From Amoebidium appalachense (Eukaryota > Protista > Ichthyosporea), in the NCBI GenBank assembly GCA_963693365.1, contig CAVNZM010000006.1, positions 11,597,355 to 11,661,354 of the forward strand: a stretch of 64,000 bases of DNA, given 5' to 3'. Position numbers and translations under genes: made by a program. How positions within the stretch are numbered: the first letter of the stretch is position 1; each line of letters starts with the position of its first letter. The notes under the pieces were generated by a model, which searched no databases, was not told the origin of the DNA, and saw only the letters and a program-made list of their open reading frames with translations. Positions 301 to 17,211 of the stretch are shown here, one piece after another.

Positions 301-627
301 CACTGCGGTGCGTGTGCACCTTTGCGTGAGTGCATTTATGTGATTGCATGCATGGGTGCCATGCGCACGTGAGCGCACGTGCTAGCACATGCAAGGTAAT
401 TCATGTACCATAGGGGTGATCACATGACGTGCATGGGAACAACACACGTGCCGTGTGGGTGCACGAACACAACACATATACATGTGGGTGAATGTGAAAA
501 GTGAATGTGATTGTTACCCCGTGGTTTCATGTGCACAGCATGTATGTTCGCGTACGTGGCCCCATCGGAACGAAGTTGAGTTGGCGCCTTCAATTTTATT
601 GCACCAATCACCGTGCGAGCTGGGTGA

Positions 628-842
628 ACACATGTCGTACCCCCCATTTCCGTGGTTTTTTTTGTAGCTCGAAAATAATGCATCATACAGTGCTCGACCC
701 GGCCGAGATACGTCCAAATTGGCGCTGGTTCAAGCGGTATAGGGGGAGCGCCCAGGAGGGCGTTCGATGGCTGGGTTGGGCTTTGTGATGGCATGCGGAA
801 TAGCTTTATTTGGCTAGAAGTTTTAGCCTTAGATGGCTTGAC
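628..842 (+). repeat. Left terminal inverted repeat of the Polinton-like element
   Basis: Reverse complement of 12610-12824; one mismatch noticed (827 vs 12625). Confidence 0.97.
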
Positions 843-893
843 TCTTGATTGTCAGCCAATCGCGTTTAGGGAAGGGCGTATACCAGCTCCACG

Positions 894-1397
894 ATGCCAA
901 ATACTGCTTTTTTGCAAGTTTTCCCGGGTACAGAAACTTTTTGTGTTTGTTGTATGTACATAAGGCATACCAGGTCCAAGATGATGCAAACCCAGGACAT
1001 TACCAGCGAGGGGCCAGATAAGATGGCAAAGTTAGCCTGCGAGTACATTCGTCTCAGAAAGCTGGGCAGAAACACAATGACGTACAGGGACACGGAGAAG
1101 AAGCGTGTATACTCCCGCCTGCTGATTAAATACATGCGCAGCCACCGGCTGCTCACATTGCAAATCCCAGGTGTGGATGATAAAGCCATTTCCCTGCAAA
1201 AGGTGAGGGGCAAAGCTGCAATGTCTCTAAAACGCATTCAACAAGCATGCAAGGAGTATTGTGATGCGGTGAAGGGAGGTAAACTTGAGCTCTCTCCTGA
1301 GACTATGATGGCGTTCATAACCACAAAGCAGCCTGAAACTACCAACTGGAAGCTTGCAGTCCAAGAGAAGTCTTCAGATTCATGGTTTGAGGCATGA
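894..1397 (+). CDS. Element ORF1: basic helical protein, tentatively like an NCLDV conserved family (DUF5760-like); start may be ATG 981 or 1023
   Basis: Intronless ORF just inside the left TIR; pattern L..EY.RL...KK...LIKYM....L..L.I...ISL...MS.K.I...Y...E.MM.FI...P resembles my recollection of that family. Confidence 0.55.
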   Translation: MPNTAFLQVFPGTETFCVCCMYIRHTRSKMMQTQDITSEGPDKMAKLACEYIRLRKLGRNTMTYRDTEKKRVYSRLLIKYMRSHRLLTLQIPGVDDKAISLQKVRGKAAMSLKRIQQACKEYCDAVKGGKLELSPETMMAFITTKQPETTNWKLAVQEKSSDSWFEA

Positions 1398-1429
1398 CAG
1401 AAATTAATTTTTGGGGATGAGAGGTAATC

Positions 1430-2146
1430 ATGGCTACACCCAGCGCAAACATGTTGGAGGCCCCGGGGCTTACAGAGGATTTGGTGGCTCTCGTGGCGGG
1501 CACCGACGAATCAGGGCAGGCAGGAAGGCCTCCCTCCATGACTGATAGTATGCTTGACCGTGATCTAATGGAAGCCGTGGAAAACAAAAGTGTGGCACGA
1601 CGAGAACGTGCAGAGGCTAGAGCTGCAGCCGAAGCCGCAGCCGGCGCTACACTAGCACTTGAAGCACAGGCAGGTGCCTCAGCTCCGAGGCTGGATGCAT
1701 CCAGCATGCATGATGCAGACACAGGCCCGCATGGCATTGCGGAGCTTAGTTGCTCGTCGCAGCATCTTGGTAGCATGACAAAGGCGTGTGGCCAGCTCCA
1801 TACAGTGCATGGTATAATCGTGTTATTTGCATACATAGCAACTACAGTGTTGAGGGTTATATCGAAGGGTATACAATTGATGGGGTGGCCTGAGAAGCTG
1901 CAGGGAGACCTTGCCAGTGGTGTGTTTGACTCGCACATTTACGCGCTGCTAGATGCGTGTACTGACGCGGCGCTGGTAAAAAATCCGATGCTGGAGCTGG
2001 GAGTGAGACTTACACTGTCAGCAATATTTCATCACAGAAGCTCGAAGCTAGCCCAGGCCGTCTCTCACGTCCACTGGCAGTCTGAGAGCATAGAACAGCC
2101 TCATGGGCAGCTTATGGACCATCTTGACCGATCTGTCACTGTGTGA
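1430..2146 (+). CDS. Element ORF2, 238 aa; C-terminal half tentatively like an NCLDV conserved family (DUF5767-like)
   Basis: Low-complexity N-terminus, then a hydrophobic helix and GIQLMGWPEKL...NPMLELGVRLTLSAIFHH, which resembles the recalled consensus DIKLDGWSE...APELKLLFMLGGSAFMFH. Confidence 0.55.
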   Translation: MATPSANMLEAPGLTEDLVALVAGTDESGQAGRPPSMTDSMLDRDLMEAVENKSVARRERAEARAAAEAAAGATLALEAQAGASAPRLDASSMHDADTGPHGIAELSCSSQHLGSMTKACGQLHTVHGIIVLFAYIATTVLRVISKGIQLMGWPEKLQGDLASGVFDSHIYALLDACTDAALVKNPMLELGVRLTLSAIFHHRSSKLAQAVSHVHWQSESIEQPHGQLMDHLDRSVTV

Positions 2147-2277
2147 CACCCAGTGTGCATGGAGTTCGAGTCTTTGAGCCACTTAGTGAGTGAATAAAAG
2201 TTTGTGGCTGAAATTTCCTGTTTCCGTGGGTTGCGATGTAAAAATTCCATTCATCCGTTCAACCCCAAATCTACATC

Positions 2278-3102
2278 ATGTCTGCGTTTGCCTTCCTGAA
2301 CCCCAGTAGCGAGGATACGACTGTAGGAGGCTACGGTAAGGCCTTCAATTACAAAGTGATTGCGTCATTGGTGCCTGCCAAAGAGCTTGCAACTGCCGTT
2401 GCCGAAGAGATGCCAGAAGCCATGCGGTACGTGCATGACAGACTGTCCGCAGCTTACGGTAGCAGCTACACACAGCACAACGTCAAGCAGTTCCTGCTCA
2501 CCTGGCCGGTGGCTATCAAAGCCTTCCATGATGCCACAACCCCAAAGATTAGTGCGCTTCGCCAGGCAGCGGAAGACAAATACAAGCTGCGCAGGGAGAG
2601 ACAGGAGGCAGACAAGCCCATCCGTGCCCAGGTCAACAAGCGTGTTGCACCCTACCTGCAAGGCTACCAGGGCTGCCTCATGAAGCGCTTGAAGCCGGAA
2701 GATTTCACTGAGTGTTCTACTCTGGCAAATATGGAAAACCAGGACAATCAGCTGGTAGGCAGGGGTGCCATGGTGCCTGTGCGTGGCCTTCGAGAGCGTG
2801 TGATAAACGAGAAGGGTATCGGTACATTGTTTAATGAGGAGATTGCACCGGCTGTGCAAGAGTACCAAGGTAGGCAGACAGGGGCATGGAATTCTGTATA
2901 CCCGCCTGGGGTAGCAAGGTCTATCGAGCAGCGTGGCTTCTACAGGGATGACAGGCAGCCCATGACAGAGACTCAGGCCGCTTTGCGCGGTATGCGACTG
3001 CAGCTTAAGGAGAGGCTGAATGCCGTCAAGCTCCGTGAAACACAGGAGGCTTTGCAGAGCATGGGTCAGAGGCCTTCGTTTGTTCTCAATGCTGCCCAGT
3101 AA
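2278..3102 (+). CDS. Element ORF3, 274-aa predicted helical protein of unknown function
   Basis: Long intronless ORF with ATG, AT-rich upstream spacer, convergent with the integrase; no recognisable motif and not jelly-roll-like by eye. Confidence 0.75.
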   Translation: MSAFAFLNPSSEDTTVGGYGKAFNYKVIASLVPAKELATAVAEEMPEAMRYVHDRLSAAYGSSYTQHNVKQFLLTWPVAIKAFHDATTPKISALRQAAEDKYKLRRERQEADKPIRAQVNKRVAPYLQGYQGCLMKRLKPEDFTECSTLANMENQDNQLVGRGAMVPVRGLRERVINEKGIGTLFNEEIAPAVQEYQGRQTGAWNSVYPPGVARSIEQRGFYRDDRQPMTETQAALRGMRLQLKERLNAVKLRETQEALQSMGQRPSFVLNAAQ

Positions 3103-3115
3103 AGAGTTTGTAGTA

Positions 3116-4249
3116 CTAGTGCCTGCCGCGATGGCGCTTTCTGCCAGACACGCCAGGCTGTGGGAATGTGGCAGGAACCGATCTCTTGTTGCCCATTTGG
3201 AACAAAATGTCGGCAGCATACAGGTCTTGCTGTAGCGGAGTCATGGCATCCAATATGGCCGATGTTTCCTTCTCTTGTTGTGTATGTGTGCTGGTGTCAG
3301 CGGGGGTGGGTAGTATGTCACGTGGGTGGCGGCGTCTGGTCACGCCCGGCTGCCCCTCAAGCTCCACTGTATACTTGAAGCCGGAAAGAAATTTGACAAC
3401 CCAGAGTGACGGGTCCCAATCCCCTGTGCCTGTGTTGACTGTCATGCTTTTCTTTGAAAAGAGCGCGTCTTTCAGTGCCTCGTCTGAGCGTATGCGCACC
3501 TTGTCGCCCGGGAGATACTTAAATGCTGTTTTCATGACTCGCTTTGCCTTCTTTACTGTTTTTAGGTGGTAGCGCTGCTCGTCGTGGTAGGTCACCAGGA
3601 ATGGAGGCTTGCCGCTGACTGCTGAGTGACATCGTGTGTTATATGTTAGTTCGATGTCCACCCACCCATTCTCATAAAAGAGGTTCAGGTAGGCAAGTCC
3701 TAGCTCAAACCTGCTTGCCATTAGCTCACGCAGGCTGCGATTAAACCTCTCCACGATGCTGTTGGCTCTATGATCGCCTGAATCCAGCATTATGTGCTGC
3801 ATGCCCATTCCCCTCACATAAGCTGTAAACTCGCCCTTGAATTCTGAACCCGGGTCTGTGATGAGCCTTTTAAAGGTGTGTGGTCCGTCTGCCCCTGCCA
3901 TGTAGTCGCTTGCTACGCCCGTGTACCCCCTGCTTGTTTCATTCTCAGGGCGCCATGCCACAGCTCTCAGAGCATACAATCTCCGAAGTGCTATTTTGAA
4001 GCCCTCTCTCACAGTGACAGAGTCACGGGCAGTCAGCGGTACCCACACTCCTCTCTTTGAGTTTACCTCGATGACAGTGAGTACAAACGGGTGTGCCTGC
4101 CCGGTCTGTGGATGCTTCTGCATACTTCCAAGGTCAATAGTGAGCACACGCTGGCGACCGGGGTATGTCAACCTCCAGCTTGCAAGGTACATGAGATCGG
4201 CATTCAGGGTCAGTGGAGGTGCTGTTACTGGAATGTCCATCTTAGACAT
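3116..4249 (-). CDS. Retroviral-like (rve, DDE) integrase of Polinton type
   Basis: LNADLMYL (D1), FVLTVIEVNSK, LITDPGSEF (D2), IVERFNRSLR (E, 34 residues after D2), YNTRCHSAV..PP, and C-terminal SH3-like YLPGDKVRIR. Confidence 0.95.
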   Translation of the reverse strand: MSKMDIPVTAPPLTLNADLMYLASWRLTYPGRQRVLTIDLGSMQKHPQTGQAHPFVLTVIEVNSKRGVWVPLTARDSVTVREGFKIALRRLYALRAVAWRPENETSRGYTGVASDYMAGADGPHTFKRLITDPGSEFKGEFTAYVRGMGMQHIMLDSGDHRANSIVERFNRSLRELMASRFELGLAYLNLFYENGWVDIELTYNTRCHSAVSGKPPFLVTYHDEQRYHLKTVKKAKRVMKTAFKYLPGDKVRIRSDEALKDALFSKKSMTVNTGTGDWDPSLWVVKFLSGFKYTVELEGQPGVTRRRHPRDILPTPADTSTHTQQEKETSAILDAMTPLQQDLYAADILFQMGNKRSVPATFPQPGVSGRKRHRGRH

Positions 4250-4284
4250 GCGAGCAACTTGCTTTCACAACCTTACCAAAATAA

Positions 4285-4794
4285 TCAACTTGCATGTGTA
4301 AAAGGTTCTATTTGGCCCGACTCTCTAAAAGTGGCTGGCATCAGCCTGGCCGCCAGCCAGCCCGGCAAGTCTGTAACAGGCTGAGACATGGTCTTCAGTG
4401 CTGTCTGGTCTAGGTGTTCAGTGGAGTGTGCTATCCATGTCGAAAACTTTTTCTCTATCTCCCAGAGGGAGACCTCTGGCTTTTTTAAATGTTTGTTAAC
4501 GCTGTTGTGAACGTCAATTAGCCAGGCAACCAGCGACTCTCGACCCTGTAAGGCAGCATCACCCAAAGCCAGCTTTCCCTTTACTAACATAGTCTGCCAG
4601 TGCCCGCGGCAGGACTCACATGGTAGCACGTGTCCTAAGCTGAAAAAGAAGTCTCTGTATTGTTTTCTATCGGCACTAGACGGTCTGGATGGGTAGCCAA
4701 AGGAGACAGCATGCAAAGAAAGCCACAGGTGCGGGCCCCAGTGGGTACTGTGTAAGTTATATCGGTCTACACTGAGTCTATGAACAGCATCCAT
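4285..4794 (-). CDS. Erv1/Alr-family FAD-linked sulfhydryl oxidase (NCLDV E10/B119L-like)
   Basis: WGPHLWLSLHAVSFGYP, LPCESCRGHW (CxxC), WLIDVHNSVNKHLKKP. Confidence 0.95.
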   Translation of the reverse strand: MDAVHRLSVDRYNLHSTHWGPHLWLSLHAVSFGYPSRPSSADRKQYRDFFFSLGHVLPCESCRGHWQTMLVKGKLALGDAALQGRESLVAWLIDVHNSVNKHLKKPEVSLWEIEKKFSTWIAHSTEHLDQTALKTMSQPVTDLPGWLAARLMPATFRESGQIEPFTHAS

Positions 4795-4916
4795 TGTCTA
4801 AGTTAATGCTATACTTGAACATAAAATGCCCCCATACTTGCGCCGCAAATGACAAACCAGTGACAACCACTGGCAGTTACCAATTCGAAAAAAAACCCAA
4901 CAAGTCAAACCAAAGC

Positions 4917-7900
4917 TCAAAAGCCATAGGGAGTAGAAGTGATTGTGTGCACGGTGCCGTCGTCATTCATCACCCGGTCATCGGGCTTGCAGATCAGACG
5001 CTTGGCGAAAGTCACACGCACTATCTTCTTCTCTGGCTGGGTCACGGGCTTCCCTCCGACCGTGCGTTTGATGCCATATGCTCTTTCAACAGTCAAGCCG
5101 GGGGTCTCGCGCAGGACAAGTCGAGTGTATGCATCTAGGTCCAGAATGTCGCGGGTAGCAGCATTAAATGGGACTCCTTTCATCTTGACACTATCTACCT
5201 CAGAGCCCGACACCTCCACTTTGCGATACGCATAGCTCTTGGGGCCAAGGCAGCGAAGTTTGGAAATGTGCTCGCCGGGCTTGAGCTCGTCTGCCAAATC
5301 CCCCAGAAGCATGCCTTTTTGAGGGTGGCAATGCAGGGGGTTGCTGCTGTCATAGATGTAGTAGATAGAGTCGGTGTCGCAGTACGCTGGCTGGCTGGGA
5401 TGTAGCTTATCCATGCTGATGTGCAGCTTGACACGGCCCCAGGCAGTGGTGCAGGCGGCGATGATGGGGCATGTGGTGATGTGCGATTGGCCAAGGGAAG
5501 CCGCCTTCTCCGATAGCTTGTATCGTACCAACACCCAGCCGGGTACATCCAGAAATCGGACATCTATAGCATCATAGTCCTTTGCCTCATACCTATCCCA
5601 CTTCTCCTTGAATGCCTTGTAGCCGTGCATGGTGTCAGGAAGCGTCATTGAGCCCCACTTATCGTGACGCTCGCCGGTTTTGCCAAAGGGGTTGACAATA
5701 ATGCTCTTAGCCAGAGCCACTCGGCCTGGATTTTTGGCTGCGGGGTCCATGATCTTCTCAGGGGTGAGGGCTAGTTCAGGCTGGGCCACAGGGTCTACAC
5801 CCATGCGCTGGTTGTATCTGCTGCAGTAGTCTGCGACCTGCTCGGGTGTCTTGCAGTGGCTGGGCACCCCATCACCTTGAGCCTTCACAGTGTACCAGTG
5901 CTTGATGAGCGGTGCAAATATGTCAACACTGGTCCGTTCATAGACACGAGCATACTTCAGGTCCAGCATCTCGTAGCCCTTGTACAGGGCGTACCTGATC
6001 TCCTGCACAGTCCACACATGTGTAATGGCACGCTCGTGCTCGCGGTGTCTGCATGTCCTGGGGGCGGAGGGACCAATCTCTGCGCATGCCCTGCACAGGG
6101 TCTCCACAAGGCGCTCAGTGACGTGTATCCGACCCTCCTCGAGGTCCCTGGGCTGCCTCTTGCCCACTGCAATCTTTGCCGACAGCACAGGCCGATGCAG
6201 ACCCCTAGGTGGAAGCATAGTGCATTCGACGAGGCCGAGTTTGCCATTGAAGAGATATGCATGCTCCCTAGGGAAGCCGGGAGGGACTCTGAAGCTGCTG
6301 CCAGTGCACTCGCCATCCGCCCGAAACAGCTGCTCAAACATCTGCGCAGGCGTTGGAGGGGTAGCTGTGCCATACCACAGCCCCACCAGGTCTATCTTGC
6401 GGTAGTTCACAAATGTACCTGCAGGCATGGGGCAGTCTAGTAGAATTGCTGGATAGTGGGACTTGTAGTCGACGACATACATGTACTCGCCGGGCTTGCA
6501 ATCGTGGTACAGGATGTAGCCATTGGTGCAGCCTCCCTTGAAAGCGTCGCGCTCTCTTGGTGGCTTCTGCATGGCAATGTGCAGCAACTTGTCGTGCTCA
6601 CAGAACCACTGCAAAGTCTCCTTCTGCCGCTGCCACTCGCAGCCCCAGATAGAAACCACCTTGTAGCCCATGGCGCGCAGCATCCCACTGCGGCTCTCTG
6701 TCTGCTGCCTTGTCTTGCCAGTCCGGCTATTGAGACCCTGTACTGCCATTGTTTCACAGTCATGGCCATGGAAGCGGCAGCCGTCGAACTCAAAGACTGT
6801 GTTAGTACGGGTGTCATACCCGTCAACATAGAGCTCACGGCCCCCAGCTGCAATCCGATACTGGCCATTGAGTTGCCAACGGAAGCGCCTGTCGAAGAGG
6901 TTGCTTGAATCGTAGCCGCAAATCTTCTCCCGCACATAGCACAGCCACTGCATCTCGTCCATACTAGACCACTGGTGCTTGTAGGGAGAGCCAAACTCAT
7001 GCACTATGGTGTTCTCGGGGAAGATTCTGTCTTGCAGCACGCCATAGACAAAGCTGCCAATAGTGGTACGCGCAAGCGGGTCGATGCCAGGGTAGGCCGC
7101 CTCCACCTCTTTCCTGTAGCAGACACAGGCCTCGCGCAGAATGAGGGTGTCCACCATGCAGTACTTTATGAGCTCCTCCCGATTGTTCCAGCCGGCGGGC
7201 CCGCGTGCTGCTGCCTCCTCCGCATGCCAAACACGAAAGTTTTCAACCTCTTTGGAGCTCTTCATCATCTGCTCAGGCGCCCAGTAGCTCTGGTCAGGCA
7301 GGGGTCCGACATAACCTTCGTGCTCTGGGGTGTTGAACAGGAGTGGATAGTTGAGCTTGCTCAGGCCAGCGTCGCCTGAAAAGCCCCACATTTGCGGGAG
7401 CTGGCTCAGTGGTCGAGGCATGTGGCGCACTGAGTCTTGCACTCGCACGCCATGGTACTGGAGGTATGGCACACTGCTGCCATCCATAATGAAGCTGAAG
7501 TCACCGTTAGCACTGTCAGGACTGCTCTTGCCCTCTCCGGACTTCATGGCGTGAGCTATCTCAGCGGGGCTCAGCTGCTCAAGAAGTGCGTTCAAAATGA
7601 AGTGTACGTCGTATTTTGCGCCATTGTGTGCGTATGCGATGAAGCCTGCATGTGCCGGTTGAAAGAGCCAAGCAATAAAGCGATTCAGGGCCTGCGGCCC
7701 CGCCCATATGTACACCTCCGGGGGCAGTTCAGAGTGCTTGCTCTGAAACCCAGGGCAGGTGCGTACCTCAACACCCGCCAGCAAAGCTTCATCGACTGGC
7801 TTGGGCGGGTTGACAGTGTAGCTGGCGACAACAACATTGACGTCTTGGGGCTGCCCAGTGCCAGCCCTCATGTATGCCTCAAAATCAAAGCATATGAGGC

Positions 7901-9314
7901 CGGCTGGGGTCAGGGTAGCCCGCTTTCTTGCTGACAGAGGCTGATAAGGCTTGTGGTTGATGAAGCAGAAGTGTGTGTCGCGATGGTTGAGCTTCATGCA
8001 TAGCCTGCACAGCTTCCAATCGCACACGCCCCACTCTTGGTGGAGCTTCCACAGTTCAGGCGAAGATTTGTCGATAGCTTGTGGGTCCTTATGCATGACC
8101 TGGCAGAGAGTCTCCCAGTTGCTCTTGTAGTCATTCCGCAGCTTCTTCTTGCTGCACAAGCGCACACAGCTGCTGCACCAGAAGAAGTTGGCCGAAAGTT
8201 TTGCACAAGTGTCGGCATCGTGGTTAGCTACACACTCAGCCGGGAGAGGAATGGCACAGCCAGTGCAAGTCATGGGGGTCAGGTCACCGTCAGCCGGAAA
8301 CACCAGCTGGTGTTGACCGTTTCTGACACTGCAGCTGTTGCATGGACTGCTGGCGCCACTATCCATGCTTGCTCTGACACACCTATGCTGGTGCCGGTCA
8401 ACCAAATCCAAGCACCAGTCGCATGGGGTCAGGTGCTTTGTTGTGGCAAAGGTACGCCCATGGAGAGCTCGCCTCCGCTCCCTGCACAGATGCAGTGCCT
8501 TCATATCCTTAATGAGCTGGACATGCTGATGCCCCCGGCCCCCTGACCCACTCACTGTGACGCCCTCAATGGCAAGGTAGGCAAAAACAACACGACCGCT
8601 GTCTTCTGCATCTGCTTTTAGCAGCTCGTTGTATGGCTGGGTACCCCGCTGAGGGATGCTGGCAAACACACGACAGTCATCGTCCAAATTTACAAGACGT
8701 AAACACAACATACGCTTGCCTGCCCCGAACTCACTGCTCCACACAGCGCCAGTGTTAATCAGGTACACAGCCTGCTCCATCTCCTCTCCGGTCCATGCAC
8801 GGCTCTCAATACCAGCAAACAGCTGGGGGTTGCTGTTTTTTACTGCTGCACGAACAATGTCGGCACCCTTTTCACGCGCGGACCGTGCCAGCCACCTAGG
8901 GTCTCCGTTCAGCTCATGCCGCCGATATTTGTCCAAAAGGACGGCAGCCGCCAGGTTGGTAGTAAAGCAGTCCTGCTTGCCCTTGCTGCTGTAGTCTGCA
9001 ATTGCACCATCTTTGCGCAAGTGTGCAGCATTGCTGTTTGCTTCATTGCTACGTTCCACACTAGAGAGGGGGCAGCCAACACGCATTCCAGCACGCCACT
9101 GCTGAAGCACATTGGTGGACCCTCCTTGCTGTCTGTCAGCTGCTTGATGCTCGGCAGTGCCAATTATCACCTCTATGTGGCAGCGCGAGAATTCAAAAGC
9201 AAATGTTGTGCCATACTGATGCTCCATATCACTGTAGTAGTCGCTGAGGCTACGCACCAGGCTGACACTGCGGACATCTGCAAGCGGCACAATGGTCTGC
9301 CATACCACTGTCAT
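4917..9314 (-). CDS. polB: Protein-primed family B DNA polymerase (pPolB), main part; true N-terminus displaced by the LTR insertion
   Basis: ExoI FDFEAY, ExoII AHNGAKYDVHFI, ExoIII YCMVDTLIL, inserted PD-(D/E)XK/VSR-like VDGYD...FEFDGCRFHGH, motif A DYKSHYP, motif B KSIIVNPFGK, motif C YCDTDS, GPKSYAY, KMKGV; N-terminal Cys/His pair and Zn-finger-like Cys clusters. Confidence 0.97.
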   Translation of the reverse strand: MTVVWQTIVPLADVRSVSLVRSLSDYYSDMEHQYGTTFAFEFSRCHIEVIIGTAEHQAADRQQGGSTNVLQQWRAGMRVGCPLSSVERSNEANSNAAHLRKDGAIADYSSKGKQDCFTTNLAAAVLLDKYRRHELNGDPRWLARSAREKGADIVRAAVKNSNPQLFAGIESRAWTGEEMEQAVYLINTGAVWSSEFGAGKRMLCLRLVNLDDDCRVFASIPQRGTQPYNELLKADAEDSGRVVFAYLAIEGVTVSGSGGRGHQHVQLIKDMKALHLCRERRRALHGRTFATTKHLTPCDWCLDLVDRHQHRCVRASMDSGASSPCNSCSVRNGQHQLVFPADGDLTPMTCTGCAIPLPAECVANHDADTCAKLSANFFWCSSCVRLCSKKKLRNDYKSNWETLCQVMHKDPQAIDKSSPELWKLHQEWGVCDWKLCRLCMKLNHRDTHFCFINHKPYQPLSARKRATLTPAGLICFDFEAYMRAGTGQPQDVNVVVASYTVNPPKPVDEALLAGVEVRTCPGFQSKHSELPPEVYIWAGPQALNRFIAWLFQPAHAGFIAYAHNGAKYDVHFILNALLEQLSPAEIAHAMKSGEGKSSPDSANGDFSFIMDGSSVPYLQYHGVRVQDSVRHMPRPLSQLPQMWGFSGDAGLSKLNYPLLFNTPEHEGYVGPLPDQSYWAPEQMMKSSKEVENFRVWHAEEAAARGPAGWNNREELIKYCMVDTLILREACVCYRKEVEAAYPGIDPLARTTIGSFVYGVLQDRIFPENTIVHEFGSPYKHQWSSMDEMQWLCYVREKICGYDSSNLFDRRFRWQLNGQYRIAAGGRELYVDGYDTRTNTVFEFDGCRFHGHDCETMAVQGLNSRTGKTRQQTESRSGMLRAMGYKVVSIWGCEWQRQKETLQWFCEHDKLLHIAMQKPPRERDAFKGGCTNGYILYHDCKPGEYMYVVDYKSHYPAILLDCPMPAGTFVNYRKIDLVGLWYGTATPPTPAQMFEQLFRADGECTGSSFRVPPGFPREHAYLFNGKLGLVECTMLPPRGLHRPVLSAKIAVGKRQPRDLEEGRIHVTERLVETLCRACAEIGPSAPRTCRHREHERAITHVWTVQEIRYALYKGYEMLDLKYARVYERTSVDIFAPLIKHWYTVKAQGDGVPSHCKTPEQVADYCSRYNQRMGVDPVAQPELALTPEKIMDPAAKNPGRVALAKSIIVNPFGKTGERHDKWGSMTLPDTMHGYKAFKEKWDRYEAKDYDAIDVRFLDVPGWVLVRYKLSEKAASLGQSHITTCPIIAACTTAWGRVKLHISMDKLHPSQPAYCDTDSIYYIYDSSNPLHCHPQKGMLLGDLADELKPGEHISKLRCLGPKSYAYRKVEVSGSEVDSVKMKGVPFNAATRDILDLDAYTRLVLRETPGLTVERAYGIKRTVGGKPVTQPEKKIVRVTFAKRLICKPDDRVMNDDGTVHTITSTPYGF

Positions 9315-9913
9315 GTGCTGAGCTGATTCGTATTAGTTTACTTCTATATTTTGTGTTTTGGTGAGTTAATTTCGGGGGTTTTCTTGCATAGTGATGCCGG
9401 GGTCTAAATGGGGTATGAGGAGATTAATCAGTGGTATGGGGAGAATCTGATGCAGCGGCGGCTGATTGTTTGGTGCGCGCGTGCATGCCCCATGCCTCTG
9501 CGTACTCTCCATGTTAAATGTTGTATTGCTTCTTGCTGTGTGCGTGGCGAGACCCATGTTGCCTGCTCGCGTGTGTGTATGCTTATATGTATTGTGAGTA
9601 AACGTGTGTACGTGTTGTAGTGCTGTAGGGGTGTCTGAGGTCGCGGTAGCCAATGGTGTGGAGTGCGTGTAGTCTGTGGGGGAGGGAGTGTTGTGATTGG
9701 CTGAATGTCACTGTGGTATTTGTCTGGCCAGTGGGCCGCGTGTCTGTGAAGTGTCTCGCGGGGTCGCGGGCTTTTGGAAGTTCTTCTCAGAACACAAAAA
9801 ACTCGCTTCCCACCCAACTCAAAGAAAAGTTTATACGTATACACGGTTTCGAGCCCCTTTAAGCGTGCAGATAGTTAGAGTAGTTCATATACACTCTGTT
9901 TGATGCCACGACA
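9309..9913 (+). repeat. 5' LTR
   Basis: Matches 11401-12005 at constant offset 2092; one mismatch noticed (9903 a vs 11995 t). Confidence 0.96.
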
Positions 9914-9925
9914 AGCTACACCCCC
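9914..9925 (+). promoter_or_regulatory. Putative non-canonical primer-binding site
   Basis: AGCTACACCCCC abuts the 5' LTR, lacks TGG, and is the reverse complement of GGGGGTGTAGCT (typical tRNA-Ala 5' end). Confidence 0.4.
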
Positions 9926-10208
9926 TTTCTCTGCAGTTTTTTGCAGGGAGGGGGCACACGCACTGTTAGTCCTTCTGGGCTGTTGCTTTCACCCCTAGTT
10001 TTTTTTTTTTTTCACGCCTAGCGGTTATGAGTGGTTTTGTCTTAGGCCTTTTTCGACGGTTAGAGGTAGAAGAAACATACGCACACACAGACCTACAGCT
10101 AGCAACAGTTGGCATAGGCAACATGAGCAGTAGGACTAGTATCACAGGGGACTTAGTCCTCGCTAAGGACCTTGACCTCCCTAGGTGACTTAGCAAGCTC
10201 AGGGCCGT

Positions 10209-10420
10209 TTGCCCAGCAGAGGCCTCAGAGGGGACCGGCGGCGGTCACCCTCCCCACGGCGCTACTGCCAGCCCTACCAGCCACGGCCACAACGGGATAA
10301 CAGATGGGCCAGACTAGCGTCTTTGGGCGGGACAGCAAGAGCCGGCGCCAGGCTCTTTCCCAGGTGTGCACCTGCGACAACTGCAAGGAGCGGGGGCAAC
10401 GCGTGGTGTAAACAGCCCCG
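10209..10420 (+). pseudogene. Decayed gag nucleocapsid remnant
   Basis: Arg/Pro-rich RGDRRRSPSPRR stretch followed in a shifted frame by C-D-N-C-K-E-R-G (from 10373), resembling a broken CX2CX4HX4C knuckle. Confidence 0.4.
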
Positions 10421-11389
10421 TCGTGGGGGGCAGGGACGTCGGTGACCGTGTTGCTGGTATGAAGGTTTTATTAGGGGGTAGGCCATCTCTTGGGTTGTTG
10501 TTGTTGTAATACTATGGGAGTAACTGTTGTGTGGTGTTATTTTTCGGCGAGTTTTCTACTGGTGCCTGGCGTTTTCGACGTGTGTATGAGTCCTGTGTTG
10601 GCGACGTGTGTGATTAGGGTCAGTGGAATAGAAAGTCCTGCTGCTGTCTGGGAGCTCGGCCCTCTGACGAGGGGGCTGGGGGGGGGTCGAAGTGTAGTCA
10701 TGGCAGTGGCAGGCCCCCACTGTTGTGAACCCCCGTCGTCAAAGGGCCTGGTGCTGAGGCCCCTTGGAGTGGCTGCCCTGGGCCTGGTGTTGAGGCCCTT
10801 TGGAGTGGCTGCCCGTAGTGTTGTTGAGTAGTGTTGTGGTGCCCAGTGCAGCAGTAGGCCTTAGACACACCGCTGGGTAGGGCACGGTTGGGGCGGAGGC
10901 ATTCCCAAACCACCGGGACCTACGTAGTAGGAGTCTTTGTCGGGTAGAGGAATGGCCAGCAAGAGAGTCTGGAGGTGTACGTCACATGAGTCTGGAGGTG
11001 TTCGTCAGTGGCATGTTAGGTTTTGCTAGGAATTCTTTGTGGATGGGGCATGCTGAGTGTGGTTGTATGGATGGTGTCTGTTATCATGTCTGTTGCTATG
11101 TTCCACTCGATATAACATTGTGCCAGGGGCATGGGGTTTTGGGTGCAGGTTGTGGACGGGGGCAGAGGTGCATCTACAGGGCAACGTCAGTGGCGGTTCT
11201 TATCCTTGTTTTGGGGTTGGGTTGGGTATTAACCATGGTGGGGTGGTGTGTGGATGTATGTATATGTTTTATGTTATATGTTAAATGTTGCTTCCTGCAT
11301 GGGTAGCGGTAGTTGTAGTCGCTCAGCACATAACTTTATTTTGTTTTTAGGTAGTTTTTACTGAGGTGGAACTCAGTTATTTTCTGTGC

Positions 11390-11399
11390 GAGGGGGGAG
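11390..11399 (+). promoter_or_regulatory. Polypurine tract of the LTR element
   Basis: GAGGGGGGAG, one base upstream of the TG start of the 3' LTR. Confidence 0.8.
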
Positions 11400-11400
11400 T

Positions 11401-12005
11401 TGTCATGTGCTGAGCTGATTCGTATTAGTTTACTTCTATATTTTGTGTTTTGGTGAGTTAATTTCGGGGGTTTTCTTGCATAGTGATGCCGGGGTCTAAA
11501 TGGGGTATGAGGAGATTAATCAGTGGTATGGGGAGAATCTGATGCAGCGGCGGCTGATTGTTTGGTGCGCGCGTGCATGCCCCATGCCTCTGCGTACTCT
11601 CCATGTTAAATGTTGTATTGCTTCTTGCTGTGTGCGTGGCGAGACCCATGTTGCCTGCTCGCGTGTGTGTATGCTTATATGTATTGTGAGTAAACGTGTG
11701 TACGTGTTGTAGTGCTGTAGGGGTGTCTGAGGTCGCGGTAGCCAATGGTGTGGAGTGCGTGTAGTCTGTGGGGGAGGGAGTGTTGTGATTGGCTGAATGT
11801 CACTGTGGTATTTGTCTGGCCAGTGGGCCGCGTGTCTGTGAAGTGTCTCGCGGGGTCGCGGGCTTTTGGAAGTTCTTCTCAGAACACAAAAAACTCGCTT
11901 CCCACCCAACTCAAAGAAAAGTTTATACGTATACACGGTTTCGAGCCCCTTTAAGCGTGCAGATAGTTAGAGTAGTTCATATACACTCTGTTTGTTGCCA
12001 CGACA
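11401..12005 (+). repeat. 3' LTR
   Basis: Copy of 9309-9913. Confidence 0.96.
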
Positions 12006-12358
12006 ACCACCTTGCCATGCACAGGGTCGTCCCCAATGAGCGAGTCGCGGCGTATGAGTTGGGTTTTAATTTGAATTCGGTCACCTGGCTGAGGGCATAC
12101 TAATTTGAAAAGCTGCACTGTGACATGCTCGAAAAACTCTTCGAAAGCCTCAGGGTCGACATCTTTTGGGTTATCAGCAGCACCATTGTGTACCACACTT
12201 AGAAGGTAGCGTGTAAATCCCAGGTTTCCCGTAGCCCGTGGTGGCTCTGCATGCTCAAGGCGGACAGCATCAGAGACACGTCCATGCGCAAGGTCGTCAA
12301 GGTCAGGCGGCACCCAGCGCACGGGTTCGGAATCTAAGTGCATGTGATCTTGAGCCAT
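12006..12358 (-). pseudogene. Separated 5' portion (about 116 codons, terminal-protein region) of the pPolB gene
   Basis: ATG at 12358 (MAQDH...); removing 9309-12005 plus one TSD joins ...HGK to VVWQTIVP... in frame. Confidence 0.9.
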
Positions 12359-12487
12359 GATTTGAATGGTATTAGGGTCAAGAAAAATTTCGTTGCGCGC
12401 TTTCAAAAGCTGCAAAATCGGCTACTTTAATCGGATTGGTTGTCTACCGAATGAAATCGGCTCTGCGATTGGACAAGCCGCAAAAAC

Positions 12488-12582
12488 GCCATCTAAGGCT
12501 AAAACGTCTAGCCAAATAAAGCTATTCCGCATGCCATCAGTGGCCATCACAAAGCTCGAAACGCCCCCGTGGGCGCGCTCCC
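12488..12582 (-). repeat. Internal partial and degenerate copy of the inner TIR segment
   Basis: gccatctaaggctaaaacgtctagccaaataaagctattccgcatgccatca (12488-12539) repeats about 12615-12666, then continues in decayed form. Confidence 0.85.
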
Positions 12583-12609
12583 AACCCTGAGCGTCCGATT
12601 GGACCCGGC

Positions 12610-12824
12610 GTCAAGCCATCTAAGACTAAAACTTCTAGCCAAATAAAGCTATTCCGCATGCCATCACAAAGCCCAACCCAGCCATCGAACGCCCTCCTGG
12701 GCGCTCCCCCTATACCGCTTGAACCAGCGCCAATTTGGACGTATCTCGGCCGGGTCGAGCACTGTATGATGCATTATTTTCGAGCTACAAAAAAAACCAC
12801 GGAAATGGGGGGTACGACATGTGT
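12610..12824 (-). repeat. Right terminal inverted repeat of the Polinton-like element
   Basis: Reverse complement of 628-842. Confidence 0.97.
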
Positions 12825-13266
12825 GTGAGTGACGTGTTAGGCCGCTGCAGCATCTTTGATTCGCGTAGCACGCATCGCCATTTCTCTATTTTTGTGTTTT
12901 CTTCTTTTTCTTGGTTTTTTTTTTTTTGCAAGTTTGCTTTGTCTCTCTTGTTGCCTATCGAGAGACCTGATCAGTGGTCGCTTCAGTGCCGCTGTCGACG
13001 TCAGAGCTGGCCAGAGTGCACGTATACTGAGGGGCAGTGGCTTTGCAGGAGTGTTGGTTACGGCCGTGCGCAGTGTCCACCAAGCACACCAAGTGGGCGG
13101 GTGGGCTGCCACCATGGCCACACCCTCCGCCCCATGTTAGTGCACCGCACCAGCAAGCCCTATCCCGCTGCCCTACCGCCCAGAGCACACCACCACCAAT
13201 ACCCAGCCTATGCCTGCAAACACCTGCCTAGCCTGCCTCCTGCCTTAGTGTGCGCTGTGACCAAAC

Positions 13267-13846
13267 ATGCCGCACTTTGTGAACGGTATGTGGTTGTGCC
13301 GGGGGGGGAGGGAGGGGGGGAGGGGGAGGGGGTGGTAGTGGGGGGAGGGACCGGGTGGGGACGGGGAGAGGGGGAGGAGGGGAGGGGGAGGGGGGGAGGG
13401 GGGGAGATGGGGGGAGGGGGTTGACGAGGACACTTTTTTGGAACACAGCGCTGGGGGGTGGCAGCGATGAGGACGACGGGACGTTCGAACCGTTTGGGCT
13501 GCACGGCACGCACGACACATACCCGCTGGGGGCGCTGGGCCCAGACAGGGCCACGGCCGAGGGCAGTGGGGACGAGGACGAGGACAGTTTGGGCGACGAG
13601 CAGAGGAACCCTGAGGGGCAGGCGGGGCGCTGGGTGCTGGTGCGGCTGCAGCTGCTGCAGGGCGGCGCGGCGCTGGTGTGGTTTGTGCTGCTGGTGGTTG
13701 CTATGCCCAGCCAGGTGCGCGCCATGGTGGGCGACACAACAAAGGGCACGGCCATAGGCGCCATGGCCGCAGTCAATGCAAGCATATCCCTCGTCGGCAG
13801 CCCCCTGTGTGGCCTGATGAGGTGTGATAAGTTTTAGAAGCCCCCT

Positions 13847-13880
<34 letters not shown>

Positions 13881-13948
13881 GCCCCCGCTCCCCCGCCCCC
13901 CTCTTTTGTTGTTTGTTTTCGTTGTACTTCGTATGACCATGCCGCGAG

Positions 13949-13981
<33 letters not shown>

Positions 13982-14451
13982 TACAGTGACCGTCTGCGTG
14001 CTGGGCGCTACCGGCGGCTGCCTGTAGTTGTGTGTGGGGCGCTAGCAGTGGGGCTGCTGCTGCAGGGCATGGCCTTTGTCTGCCCCCACATACCCCCGAC
14101 CCCTGCCCAGCACCAGGCTGGCCCCTGCAAGGCCACGCCCACCCCCTCAGACCCAGCAGGGCTGCAGCCAAGCGGCGGCCTGGGCAGCTACACGGTGGCC
14201 TTTGTGCTGGTGTCGGCCGGCTATCTGTTTGTGCAGGTGGGTGGCTGGGCACGTGCAACACACAGGCACACAGGTCACAGGCAGGCACTGTGATAGACAT
14301 GCACGTGTGGGATCAACACACCCTCAACGGTGCGTGGTGGTGTGCGCACATGGAAACAAACAGACGCAAGGAGCCACATTTATCCGCACAACATATTCAA
14401 GCACACGTACTCACAGACACAGACAAGCACCACACCTATACGCTAACACAC

Positions 14452-14494
<43 letters not shown>

Positions 14495-15879
14495 ACACAC
14501 ACACAGAAAAAAAAAAACCACTACACATACCCTAGAAATACCCGCACACGTGCGCGTGCACACACACTATTCATCCAAAAACACATCCACAACCATGACT
14601 ATAACCCAAGCGACACCGGGTCACTTAGCACCCCTCTATTGGCATATTTCATGTTGAAGCCCTACCTTAATGTGTCGGATGAAGGGATTGGGTTGACACA
14701 AGCCGTTTAAGGTGTAAGGCGACCTGCTTGCATATAGCCCTTATTGAACACGTAAACATATCCAATTGGCTATGTTTACTCTCGCTATTGTATATCGAAA
14801 GACCTCCACCAGCCAAAATTTTAGAGGGTCCCATTGTGGAGCGGGTATGGCTCCGCTGTTTTCATACTCTGGCTGATTGCTTTCATTCCCCCCCCCCCCC
14901 CCCTCCCCCCCCCCCCCCCACCCCACCTCCCACCCCCCTCTCCCAACTCCCCGTGCCCATTCCCTCCACTGCCTCTCCCGTTTTCCCCCCTGTCACGACT
15001 TCACGAGTCCACCCCCCCACCCCCCCCCCCCCAAAACCGCCCTCCCCTCGCTCCCCCCCACCACCACGCCACCCACCCACCCATATACATACACCCACGC
15101 ACACGTCCCACGCAGGTGCCGTACAGCGGGGTGATTGCAGACATGACGCCCAGCCACCTGCGGGGGTTCAGCAGTGGGGCACTGGGGGCCATGACCACAC
15201 TGGGGCAGATGGCTGGCGCCCTGGTGGGCGTGGCCTATGCACAGCTGGGCGTGCACGGCACATACGCCCTGCTGGCGGGCGCCATGGTGGCCGCGGGTGT
15301 GTGTGTGTGTGTGTGTGTGCGCACACGTGCGTGTGTACGTGCGTGCCTGCGTGTGTGGGAAGGTGTGCATGTGTGTGTGTTCTTCGGCGTGTGCCGTGCT
15401 TGTACACACGTGTGCGTGTCTGTGTGTGCATGCCTGTGTATGTGCTTGGGCCCATGCCTGATTTGAAGAGCTTCGGTGAGCATAATTTCTATGGTGTGTG
15501 GATCATGTGGGTCAGGGTGGGCCCCTCTTCTTATGCCGAGGCGTTGCTATGCTGTAGAAGCACCTAGAGAGAGGACTGGATGGGTGGCCAAGGGTGCTGA
15601 TTTGTTTTTGTGTTTGGTCGTGTGTGTGCTCGTGTCTGTACGGGTGTCTGTTCGTGTGGTGATGGTGGTGAAGGGTAGGGAGGATGGGGCATACCCAGGC
15701 TAAAGGGAGAGGCACTTGTCCTTCAGGGGAGGGGAGAGGAGGGGAGGGGGAGGGGGGGGGGGGGGGGGGAGGGGTGGACAAAAGTGTGGGTGCTTCCCAC
15801 TGTAGCAAGATCACGGGCTACTCCCTGATTGTAGTTTGTGCACCAGGCAGCCAAGGCACCTGCCTCCCCCTTCCCCCCT

Positions 15880-15954
<75 letters not shown>

Positions 15955-17211
15955 ACACCCACATCCACACACCCCAATGCCAGGCAGGCATGCACACTGA
16001 CCCCCTACCCCGTGCAGCACTGGCCACGGGCTGCAGTGTCACCGAGCACGTGCAAAGGTCTGTGCGGCCCCGCAAGGCGCTGAGCGTGGGAGCAGTGGTG
16101 ACGTCATTCGTGGAGCCTCTGAGGGACCACGACTTCAGATGGGTCTTTGCCACCCGCTTCCTCATGCAGCAGGCGTGCCCCCTCCCTGCATATGCCTGTT
16201 GCTCGGGACATGCACACGGCACATAGTGCAGGGCATGCTCGTGGCACTCAGTGTGCAGGGCATGCACGTGGCTGACTGTGTGTGTGCAGGGCGTGCACGT
16301 GGCTGACTGTGTGTGTGCAGGGGGTGTCGACGGTGCTGAACTTTCTCGAGTACTGGCTGGTGGATGTGGTGGTGCTGCCCGAGGGCCTTGGTGCTGAGAG
16401 GGCCGTGGGGCTTGTGTTCCTGCCCCTGCTGGCTGCCTCCCTGCTGGCTGCAATGGCCGGGGGCTGGGCCAGCGACCGCATGGGGGGCAGAAGGAGAGCG
16501 CTGGTCATGGGGGCGGGCGCACTGATGGCCCTGGCCGCACTGGCCATGTGCTTCCTGCGCCAGCTGGGGGGGGTGGTGGTGGCTGCCACCGTGCTGGGCC
16601 TGGGCTATGGCACATTCGTGGCCGTGGACTTTGCAATGGTGCGTGCCATGCACACAGTAGCGGGCATGCACACAGTAGCGGGCATGCACACAGTAGCTGG
16701 CATGCACACAGTAGCGGGCATGCACACAGTAGCTGGCATGTACACAGTAGCGGGCATGCACACAGTAGCTGGCATGTACACAGTAGCGGGCATGCACACA
16801 GTAGCGGGCATGCACACAGTAGCTGGCATGCACACAGTAGCTGGCATGCACACAGTAGCTGACATGCACACAGTAGCTGGCATGCACGCAGTAGCTGGCA
16901 TGCATGCAAAGGCCATGCCACAGTATCTGGCAATTGCACCAATCATAGGGCAGGCGCTCACCCCCTGCCCCCAGGTGCTTGACGTGCTGCCAGACTCTCA
17001 GCGGCGTGCGCAGGACCTTGCGGTGTGGCACAGTGCGCTGGTGCTGCCGCAGATCCTGGCCACACCATTGGGCGGCCTGCTGAGGGACACGTTCCAGACC
17101 GTGGGCTGTGGCTGCCAGTGCGGGTTGGGCTACAAGGTGCTGTTTGGCACTGCAGCAGCATACTTTGCCCTGTCGGCCCTGCTGGTCACACGCATACGCA
17201 ACGTCAGGTAG
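13267..17211 (+). CDS. Major facilitator superfamily transporter, multi-exon
   Basis: Exons about 13267-13285, 13449-13821, 13987-14236, 15116-15297, 16018-16172, 16321-16638, 16975-17211 splice in frame; two motif-A copies (GLMSDRLRAGRYRR, GGWASDRMGGRRR); DFRWVFATRFLMQ; many transmembrane helices. Confidence 0.9.
16645..16905. repeat. 18-bp intronic minisatellite (gcatgcacacagtagc[gt]g)
   Basis: About 14 tandem copies inside the MFS intron 16639-16974. Confidence 0.92.

Follow-up and report, generated by a model that had tools for sequence, protein, structure and literature searches.

Maverick-Polintons (Polintoviricetes) are bounded by terminal inverted repeats (TIRs) of 100-1500 bp, are flanked by target-site duplications of 5-8 bp (10.1101/2023.08.22.554363), span 13-25 kb, and encode a major capsid protein (MCP), an ATPase and adenain; one survey argues that they are, without exception, capsid-encoding endogenous viruses (PMC10120064). 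The element described here lies at positions 628 to 12,824 of a 64,000-nucleotide stretch of the Amoebidium appalachense genome (contig CAVNZM010000006.1 of assembly GCA_963693365.1; hereafter the window), and it resembles Maverick-Polintons of the VSR-bearing pPolB2 type in having TIRs (of 215 nt, within the Polinton range), a long pPolB polymerase with an exonuclease and a likely VSR insert, and an RVE integrase. However, it measures 9.5 kb, the matching flank at its single site is 4 bp long, shorter than any Polinton duplication cited above, the Polinton MCP, ATPase and adenain are not detected in it, and its accessory genes are of giant-virus type.

Another example for comparison is the transpovirons of mimivirids, linear DNAs of approximately 7 kb with 6-8 genes, found inside giant-virus particles (PMC11464507). 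Like them, the element is a short DNA with about six genes and no morphogenetic module (PMC3671162, PMC11464507). Transpovirons, however, possess a fusion of a pPolB palm with a superfamily 1 helicase, lacking the exonuclease (PMC11161782), whereas the element encodes Exo I-III and has no Walker A motif in the polymerase frame; and while transpovirons reside in giant-virus particles or genomes, the element resides in a cellular chromosome and itself carries Erv1 and DUF5767/DUF5760-like genes. The element is thus neither a Polinton, in terms of capsid genes, size and duplication length, nor a transpoviron, in terms of polymerase type.

The capsid-less pMVREs and the transpoviron-like pPolB+DDE modules in eukaryote genomes are likewise bound by TIRs and devoid of structural genes (PMC13215967; 10.64898/2026.10.13.758929), but they belong to the mavirus-related polymerase lineage, in which the element is probably not included. 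As TIR-bound pPolB elements with no structural genes are already recognised in these two sources, the suggestion of a distinct class, made in the first-pass annotation of this DNA, was an overstatement. The term Erv1 is absent from the searched main text of both sources, and the terms Erv1, DUF5767 and DUF5760 are absent from eight supplement files of PMC13215967. Further parallels are presented by the Mriyaviruses and by Zora/VC218, which have small genomes sharing giant-virus genes, with an RVE integrase in Zora and VC218 (10.64898/2026.06.19.733378); these, in contrast, are of 20-45 kb and are defined by an MCP and an ATPase like those of NCLDV (large nucleocytoplasmic DNA viruses), along with Mriya48, VLTF2/3 and HUH. 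The helper-dependent Polinton-like viruses (PLVs) Gezel-14T and Tetraselmis TsV-S2/S3 are integrated in algal genomes and are the model for the lifestyle proposed for the element but, unlike it, encode their own capsids. The gene set of the element was not found reported in the literature searched (subscription journals, Repbase and the supplements of bioRxiv preprints excluded), nor did it appear in term searches of PMC11253617, PMC12085832, PMC12220804 and 10.1101/2025.10.09.676808.

Boundaries and gene content of the unit

The feature as first described is real. The two TIRs are identical at 214 of 215 positions (BLAST), and they are bordered by GTGA on either side, four being the only length, of the lengths from 1 to 11 tested, at which the flanks match; for a 4-bp match at a single site the chance expectation is approximately 1 in 256. 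The unit of about 9.5 kb claimed previously comes to 9,495 nt when the nested long terminal repeat (LTR) element and one copy of its duplication are subtracted, and 88% of this is coding. The six genes listed before, for pPolB, integrase, Erv1 and three open reading frames (ORF1-3), are confirmed and tightly packed, with intergenic gaps of 32, 131, 13, 35 and 122 nt, ORF1-3 reading inward from the left end and pPolB, Erv1 and integrase from the right end. All six are whole (pPolB being counted without the LTR insertion), with no truncated gene, remnant or scar seen. The features are as follows.

624-627, forward strand: GTGA flank match, left copy; likely target-site duplication
628-842, forward strand: left TIR, 215 nt, 5' end ACACA
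957-1397, forward strand: ORF1 of 146 aa (167 aa if read from the upstream ATG at 894), a basic protein; probably a remote homologue of DUF5760 (PF19064)
1430-2146, forward strand: ORF2 of 238 aa, with a hydrophobic helix (residues 126-144); probably a remote homologue of DUF5767 (PF19071)
2278-3102, forward strand: ORF3, 274 aa, orphan, mildly basic; helical in a low-confidence model
3116-4249, reverse strand: RVE-type DDE integrase, 377 aa; D39, D132, E167 (D-35-E spacing)
4285-4794, reverse strand: Erv1/Alr sulfhydryl oxidase, 169 aa; Pfam 1.2e-19, CxxC intact, by sequence of giant-virus type
4917-9308, reverse strand: pPolB, C-terminal piece; Pfam DNA_pol_B_2 3.2e-12, homologues at 22-29% identity
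9309-12005, forward strand: non-coding LTR retroelement inside the pPolB gene; LTRs at 9309-9913 and 11401-12005
12011-12358, reverse strand: N-terminal piece of pPolB (116 codons), sharing the reading frame of the C-terminal piece
12488-12582, reverse strand: incomplete repeat of the inner TIR, with 82% identity to 742-837
12610-12824, reverse strand: right TIR, pairing with the left TIR
12825-12828, forward strand: GTGA flank match, right copy; likely target-site duplication

Three of the four genes not involved in replication point to giant viruses, namely Erv1, the likely DUF5760 and the likely DUF5767, and so the giant-virus-like content is larger than originally claimed. Erv1 is clearly of giant-virus type: its closest match is mimivirus R596 (86.7 bits, E 1.5e-23), versus 48 bits (E 1.1e-11) for the yeast Erv1 and 37.6 bits for ALR, and its N-terminal WGP is common to all 19 other sequences in the alignment, 18 of them from giant viruses and none a cellular Erv1. 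The protein contains two cysteines only. The short giant-virus paralogues end in a hydrophobic helix and the long paralogues in a tail with cysteines, and both of these features are missing from it.

ORF1 is likely, if not proven, to be a distant DUF5760 homologue. DUF5760 is its sole Pfam match (E 0.038 and 0.02), covering positions 3-83 of the profile (81 of 86), and ORF1 aligns end to end with nine giant-virus members of the family at a score reached by 3 of 2000 shuffles. For ORF2, distant homology to DUF5767 is likewise likely rather than proven. Its Atlas score is 0.92 (214 of 256 features), on a calibration that does not extend to parts of proteins, and the best clusters are viral, mostly of nucleocytoviruses, with approximately 20% of their members carrying DUF5767. 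In addition, residues 146-207 are colinear with a profile of 80 DUF5767 domains, the score being reached by 1 of 1000 shuffles; these domains came from 120 giant-virus loci fetched with a motif, one representative being confirmed as DUF5767. ORF3 has no homologue in the database searches. Of the fold checks originally proposed, modelling and Foldseek searches of ORF2 and ORF3 gave no match at E <= 0.001, the single-sequence models being poor (pLDDT of 54 for ORF2 and 48 for ORF3, the latter helical with no beta structure). Profiles of 46 gene families from the 120 giant-virus loci produced no significant match to the window proteins, and the DUF5760 and DUF5767 profiles produced no convincing match to solved structures.

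DUF5760 is present in six and Erv1 in all of the nine giant-virus records inspected, versus none of 14 control genomes. A conserved linkage of the two was considered and rejected: they lie 1-3 kb apart in three of the nine records, and the neighbouring Erv1 is only remotely paralogous (8-17 bits); for the Erv1 type closest to the element's, the scores are 52-70 bits for 14 others and 46 bits for one more. The DUF5760 genes near a divergent Erv1 paralogue are found at G001:C1:7484-9079, G004:C2:35310-38694 and G009:C2:74823-76367, and in the two of these records that were checked DUF5760 adjoins a Lon protease gene. No related locus was found in viral contigs when searching with single window proteins, with an Erv1 relative or with an alignment of three Erv1 sequences, and the window proteins have no identical entry in the exact-sequence collection.

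As to the capsid module, the earlier statement that no Polinton morphogenesis gene is recognisable still stands for MCP, A32 ATPase and adenain. No Pfam family for MCP, A32 ATPase or adenain-like protease is found in the six genes, and no Pfam match to the NCLDV-like MCP, ATPase or VLTF2/3 either. Profiles for MCP, A32 ATPase and adenain were also built from Polinton loci and identified by Pfam (the MCP profile comprising 12 sequences, of Polinton type only), and these match none of the 238 six-frame segments of the element; as a control, they match 22 (MCP), 34 (A32 ATPase) and 15 (adenain) of 108 pPolB loci, the loci of origin included. Locus-derived profiles, none of them confirmed as penton, do not match ORF1-3. 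The Walker A motif is absent from the frames of the six genes, the only two similar strings being in non-gene frames. As MCP profiles do not transfer across PLV groups (bioRxiv 10.64898/2026.06.19.733378), space presents the stronger argument for the lack of a capsid: with gaps of 13-131 nt, there is no gap large enough for an MCP, and ORF3 is the only gene with no assignment.

Polymerase, integrase and the nested retroelement

The presence of a nested LTR element, noted originally, is supported, with the correction that the insertion is inside the pPolB gene, so that the polymerase of the window copy is split. The retroelement, of approximately 2.7 kb, has LTRs of 605 nt, identical at 604 positions, a purine tract preceding the 3' LTR, and a 5-bp duplication ACCAC at 9304-9308 and 12006-12010. 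As the LTRs are near-identical, the insertion would be recent. Joined across it, the pPolB pieces (12358-12011 and 9308-4917) are in frame, for a total of 1,579 codons, and with the gene so split the window copy is likely inactive as a replicon. The retroelement has a 36-nt tandem pair inside (10744-10814), encodes no gag or pol ORF and shows a summed contig depth of tens of thousands in sequencing run X2, from which it is likely to represent an abundant non-autonomous LTR family.

The pPolB has 13 database homologues, of 22-29% identity, the best of them of Polinton type. No homologue was found, by Pfam or homologue searches, for its N-terminal piece, which by position is likely part of the terminal-protein region. 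Read by eye, the domain order is an N-terminal region, a candidate vOTU domain (Cys228/His375), Exo I-III, an insert, and Pol A, B and C. The insert, with weak Pfam matches to RAP/REase nuclease families, is likely a VSR-type nuclease, and it would match the VSR motif. The same domain order is described for Polinton polymerases (PMC11161782), and a VSR insert is reported in some pPolB2 (10.1101/2023.08.22.554363). The polymerase is unusual in motif B (5682-5708), which reads K-x4-N-x-F-G, with the asparagine one residue later than canonical; among 73 sequences, 65 have the canonical spacing, 7 match neither pattern, and the shifted form is present in this pPolB only.

A phylogeny, as called for in the first-pass annotation, could be built for pPolB, without yielding a supported placement. 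In a FastTree tree of 73 sequences and 1,074 columns, midpoint-rooted and restricted, for the locus ORFs, to those that span 550 or more positions of the profile, the element's polymerase forms a long branch whose sister is unsupported (support value 0.585). Its intact exonuclease speaks against a polymerase of the mavirus/transpoviron clade (pMVRE), the tree itself being composed without reference pMVREs. The integrase matches a profile of Polinton integrases (E 1.8e-16), with a weak Pfam match to rve_3, and no chromodomain was detected in it.

Other copies and a diverged subfamily

The element has relatives that lack the LTR insertion as well as diverged ones. Of the 24 sequencing runs listed, 12 hold 64-97% of the element's sampled words; these come from two named studies plus four entries with no study given, and one may be the source sample. 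The other 12 contain almost none of these words, among them further samples with labels identical to those of the first group, and they carry no weight either way. Four of the runs, representing at most three samples, were compared in detail, and the pPolB junction free of the LTR element is present in contigs of all four. The contig depth of the element is 516-620 in X2 and 108-126 in run X3, whereas bins on the right flank average 7-38 and 21-24, respectively, and in two small runs the element was assembled and its flanks were not. These depths would fit either multiple or free copies, contig depth not being copy number.

The evidence on variants is drawn from 40 of 734 variant records and 23 of 111 loose contig ends. 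A diverged subfamily is represented by an integrase contig with 96 substitutions over 710 nt and by a polymerase contig with 75 substitutions over 580 nt, both ungapped, and by a contig joining the Erv1 side to the polymerase side, for which the intervening length is not reported. A different terminus found among the contigs likewise starts with ACACA.

Satellite, derivative or transposon

The polymerase and the integrase account for copying and insertion, and it is the accessory genes that need another explanation. The reading that we favour, with somewhat less than even confidence, is that the element, with a Polinton replicon as its base, travels with a giant virus as a transpoviron-like passenger. 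By analogy with Polintons, a terminal protein would prime the replication of linear DNA from intact copies at their 5'-ACAC ends and would be set free by the vOTU domain, and insertion of new copies by the DDE integrase would create a short duplication. In a cell co-infected by a nucleocytovirus, the Erv1, DUF5767-like and DUF5760-like proteins would in turn operate in the cytoplasmic factory of that virus, through which the element could be copied there and be carried in helper particles, possibly at the helper's cost. The nucleocytoviricot orthologue of Erv1 forms disulfides in virion proteins of L1/F9 type, with which it co-occurs; as no such substrate is recognised in the element, a protein of the helper would be the natural candidate, and use in the factory the simplest interpretation. 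A giant virus is known to reactivate endogenous PLVs in a green alga (10.1101/2025.10.09.676808). The more specific proposal, of a giant-virus satellite in the host chromosome that has traded its capsid module for Erv1 and the DUF5767-like and DUF5760-like genes and that boards or sabotages helper virions, we regard as rather doubtful.

Multiple points weigh against a passenger lifestyle. No helper virus, induction, expression, free linear form or packaging was seen, and the cassette of Erv1, DUF5760 and DUF5767 is found in none of the 108 pPolB loci, 39 of which are at least 8 kb long. The assignments of ORF1 and ORF2 are below the Pfam cut-offs; ORF2 has no match in Pfam, among 1.84 billion representatives or to the full-length DUF5767 profile, its hhalign probability versus DUF5767 is 0.4-1.1%, and the seed motif for the DUF5767 loci was picked for resemblance to ORF2. 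The regions upstream of the genes (60-65% A+T over 40 nt) share no motif above chance across all six, the best 5-mer and 6-mer being reached by 662 and 625 of 1000 shuffles, respectively. The shifted motif B means that polymerase activity is not assured. Finally, a longer, capsid-bearing sister may exist, the pPolB-Erv1 interval of the diverged subfamily being unsized and only 23 of the 111 loose ends being covered.

Such a sister would suit the proposal that the element arose by shortening from a larger virus of the same genome or population that has capsid genes, for example a small PLV related to nucleocytoviruses and equipped with an RVE integrase. This scenario, in which the parent would have passed on the giant-virus-like genes and would package the short form in trans as a defective or satellite genome, we consider unlikely, if next in probability. 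PLV-sized relatives of nucleocytoviruses with an RVE integrase and NCLDV-shared genes do exist, as Zora/VC102 and VC218 (10.64898/2026.06.19.733378), and in all earlier claims of capsid-less Polintons, Trichomonas included, an MCP eventually came to light (PMC10120064). Contig depth is also higher at 7682-7832, a diverged joint within the polymerase (303 in X2 and 98.5 in X3), than where diverged pPolB and Erv1 join (191 and 38, respectively), which may hint at a further variant, as far as contig depth, not being copy number, can do so. However, the six ORFs are whole and separated by 13-131 nt with no scar, none of the six joints listed shows a long insert (one being of unreported length), and Erv or oxidoreductase terms are absent from the main text of the Mriyavirus paper. 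Still less probable, in our view, is a particle of the element's own that lacks a double jelly roll, with ORF3 and ORF1 coating the DNA and Erv1 oxidising ORF2 as a membrane protein. While ORF3 is unexplained, mildly basic and predicted to be helical, ORF2 has a hydrophobic helix and very divergent capsids have been overlooked before (PMC10120064), there is no packaging ATPase, as judged by the lack of Walker A in the frames of the six genes, and ORF3 is short for a double jelly-roll MCP, with no beta structure in its model, itself unreliable (pLDDT 48). This option is very improbable.

A helper may also be unnecessary, were the element a self-synthesising transposon spreading only within the host lineage, its giant-virus-like genes being cargo or self-serving; this we find quite unlikely, as we do the examples of such service, in which ORF1 would bind the element's DNA and Erv1 would fold one of the element's proteins. 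The polymerase and the integrase would indeed suffice, and TIR-bound pPolB elements of fungi, likely plasmids, do without structural genes (PMC13215967). The CpG depletion (observed/expected ratio of 0.61, near the 0.52 of the host flank, both being depleted) fits a long nuclear residence, and the element is not found in the viral collection. On the other hand, a disulfide oxidase of cytoplasmic type would have no evident role in nuclear transposition, a giant-virus affinity of three of the four accessory genes is hard to reconcile with random cargo, and a spacing of 32-35 nt between genes without introns is closer to a viral than to a host pattern.

Were a family of several members to combine a full Polinton-type polymerase with the lack of a capsid, it would run counter to the view advanced in PMC10120064, and surveys based on MCP would overlook it. 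Should the giant-virus genes act on a helper, the element would be a host-integrated satellite that works via the morphogenesis of its helper and not via a capsid of its own, a eukaryotic counterpart of the phage satellites that remodel helper morphogenesis. It would also offer an experimental handle on DUF5767 and DUF5760, conserved giant-virus families of unknown function, each named in one paper only within the literature searched.

A few minor observations can be added. Another mix of Polinton replication and giant-virus genes is present in a viral contig of 20 kb, which encodes a pPolB and a VLTF3-like gene (L002:5578-12415). Polinton-type pPolB genes are also found in 23 contigs of bacterial metagenome-assembled genomes (L238-L260), likely mis-binned eukaryotic elements. 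The host DNA of the window is of approximately 57% GC, with many introns and microsatellites. The left flank (1-627) contains short imperfect direct repeats and shows raised contig depth, and it may be the terminal part of a different repeat that received the element. Approximately 450 nt to the right of the element, a host gene (13283-17211) resembles, as read by eye, an intron-split membrane transporter.

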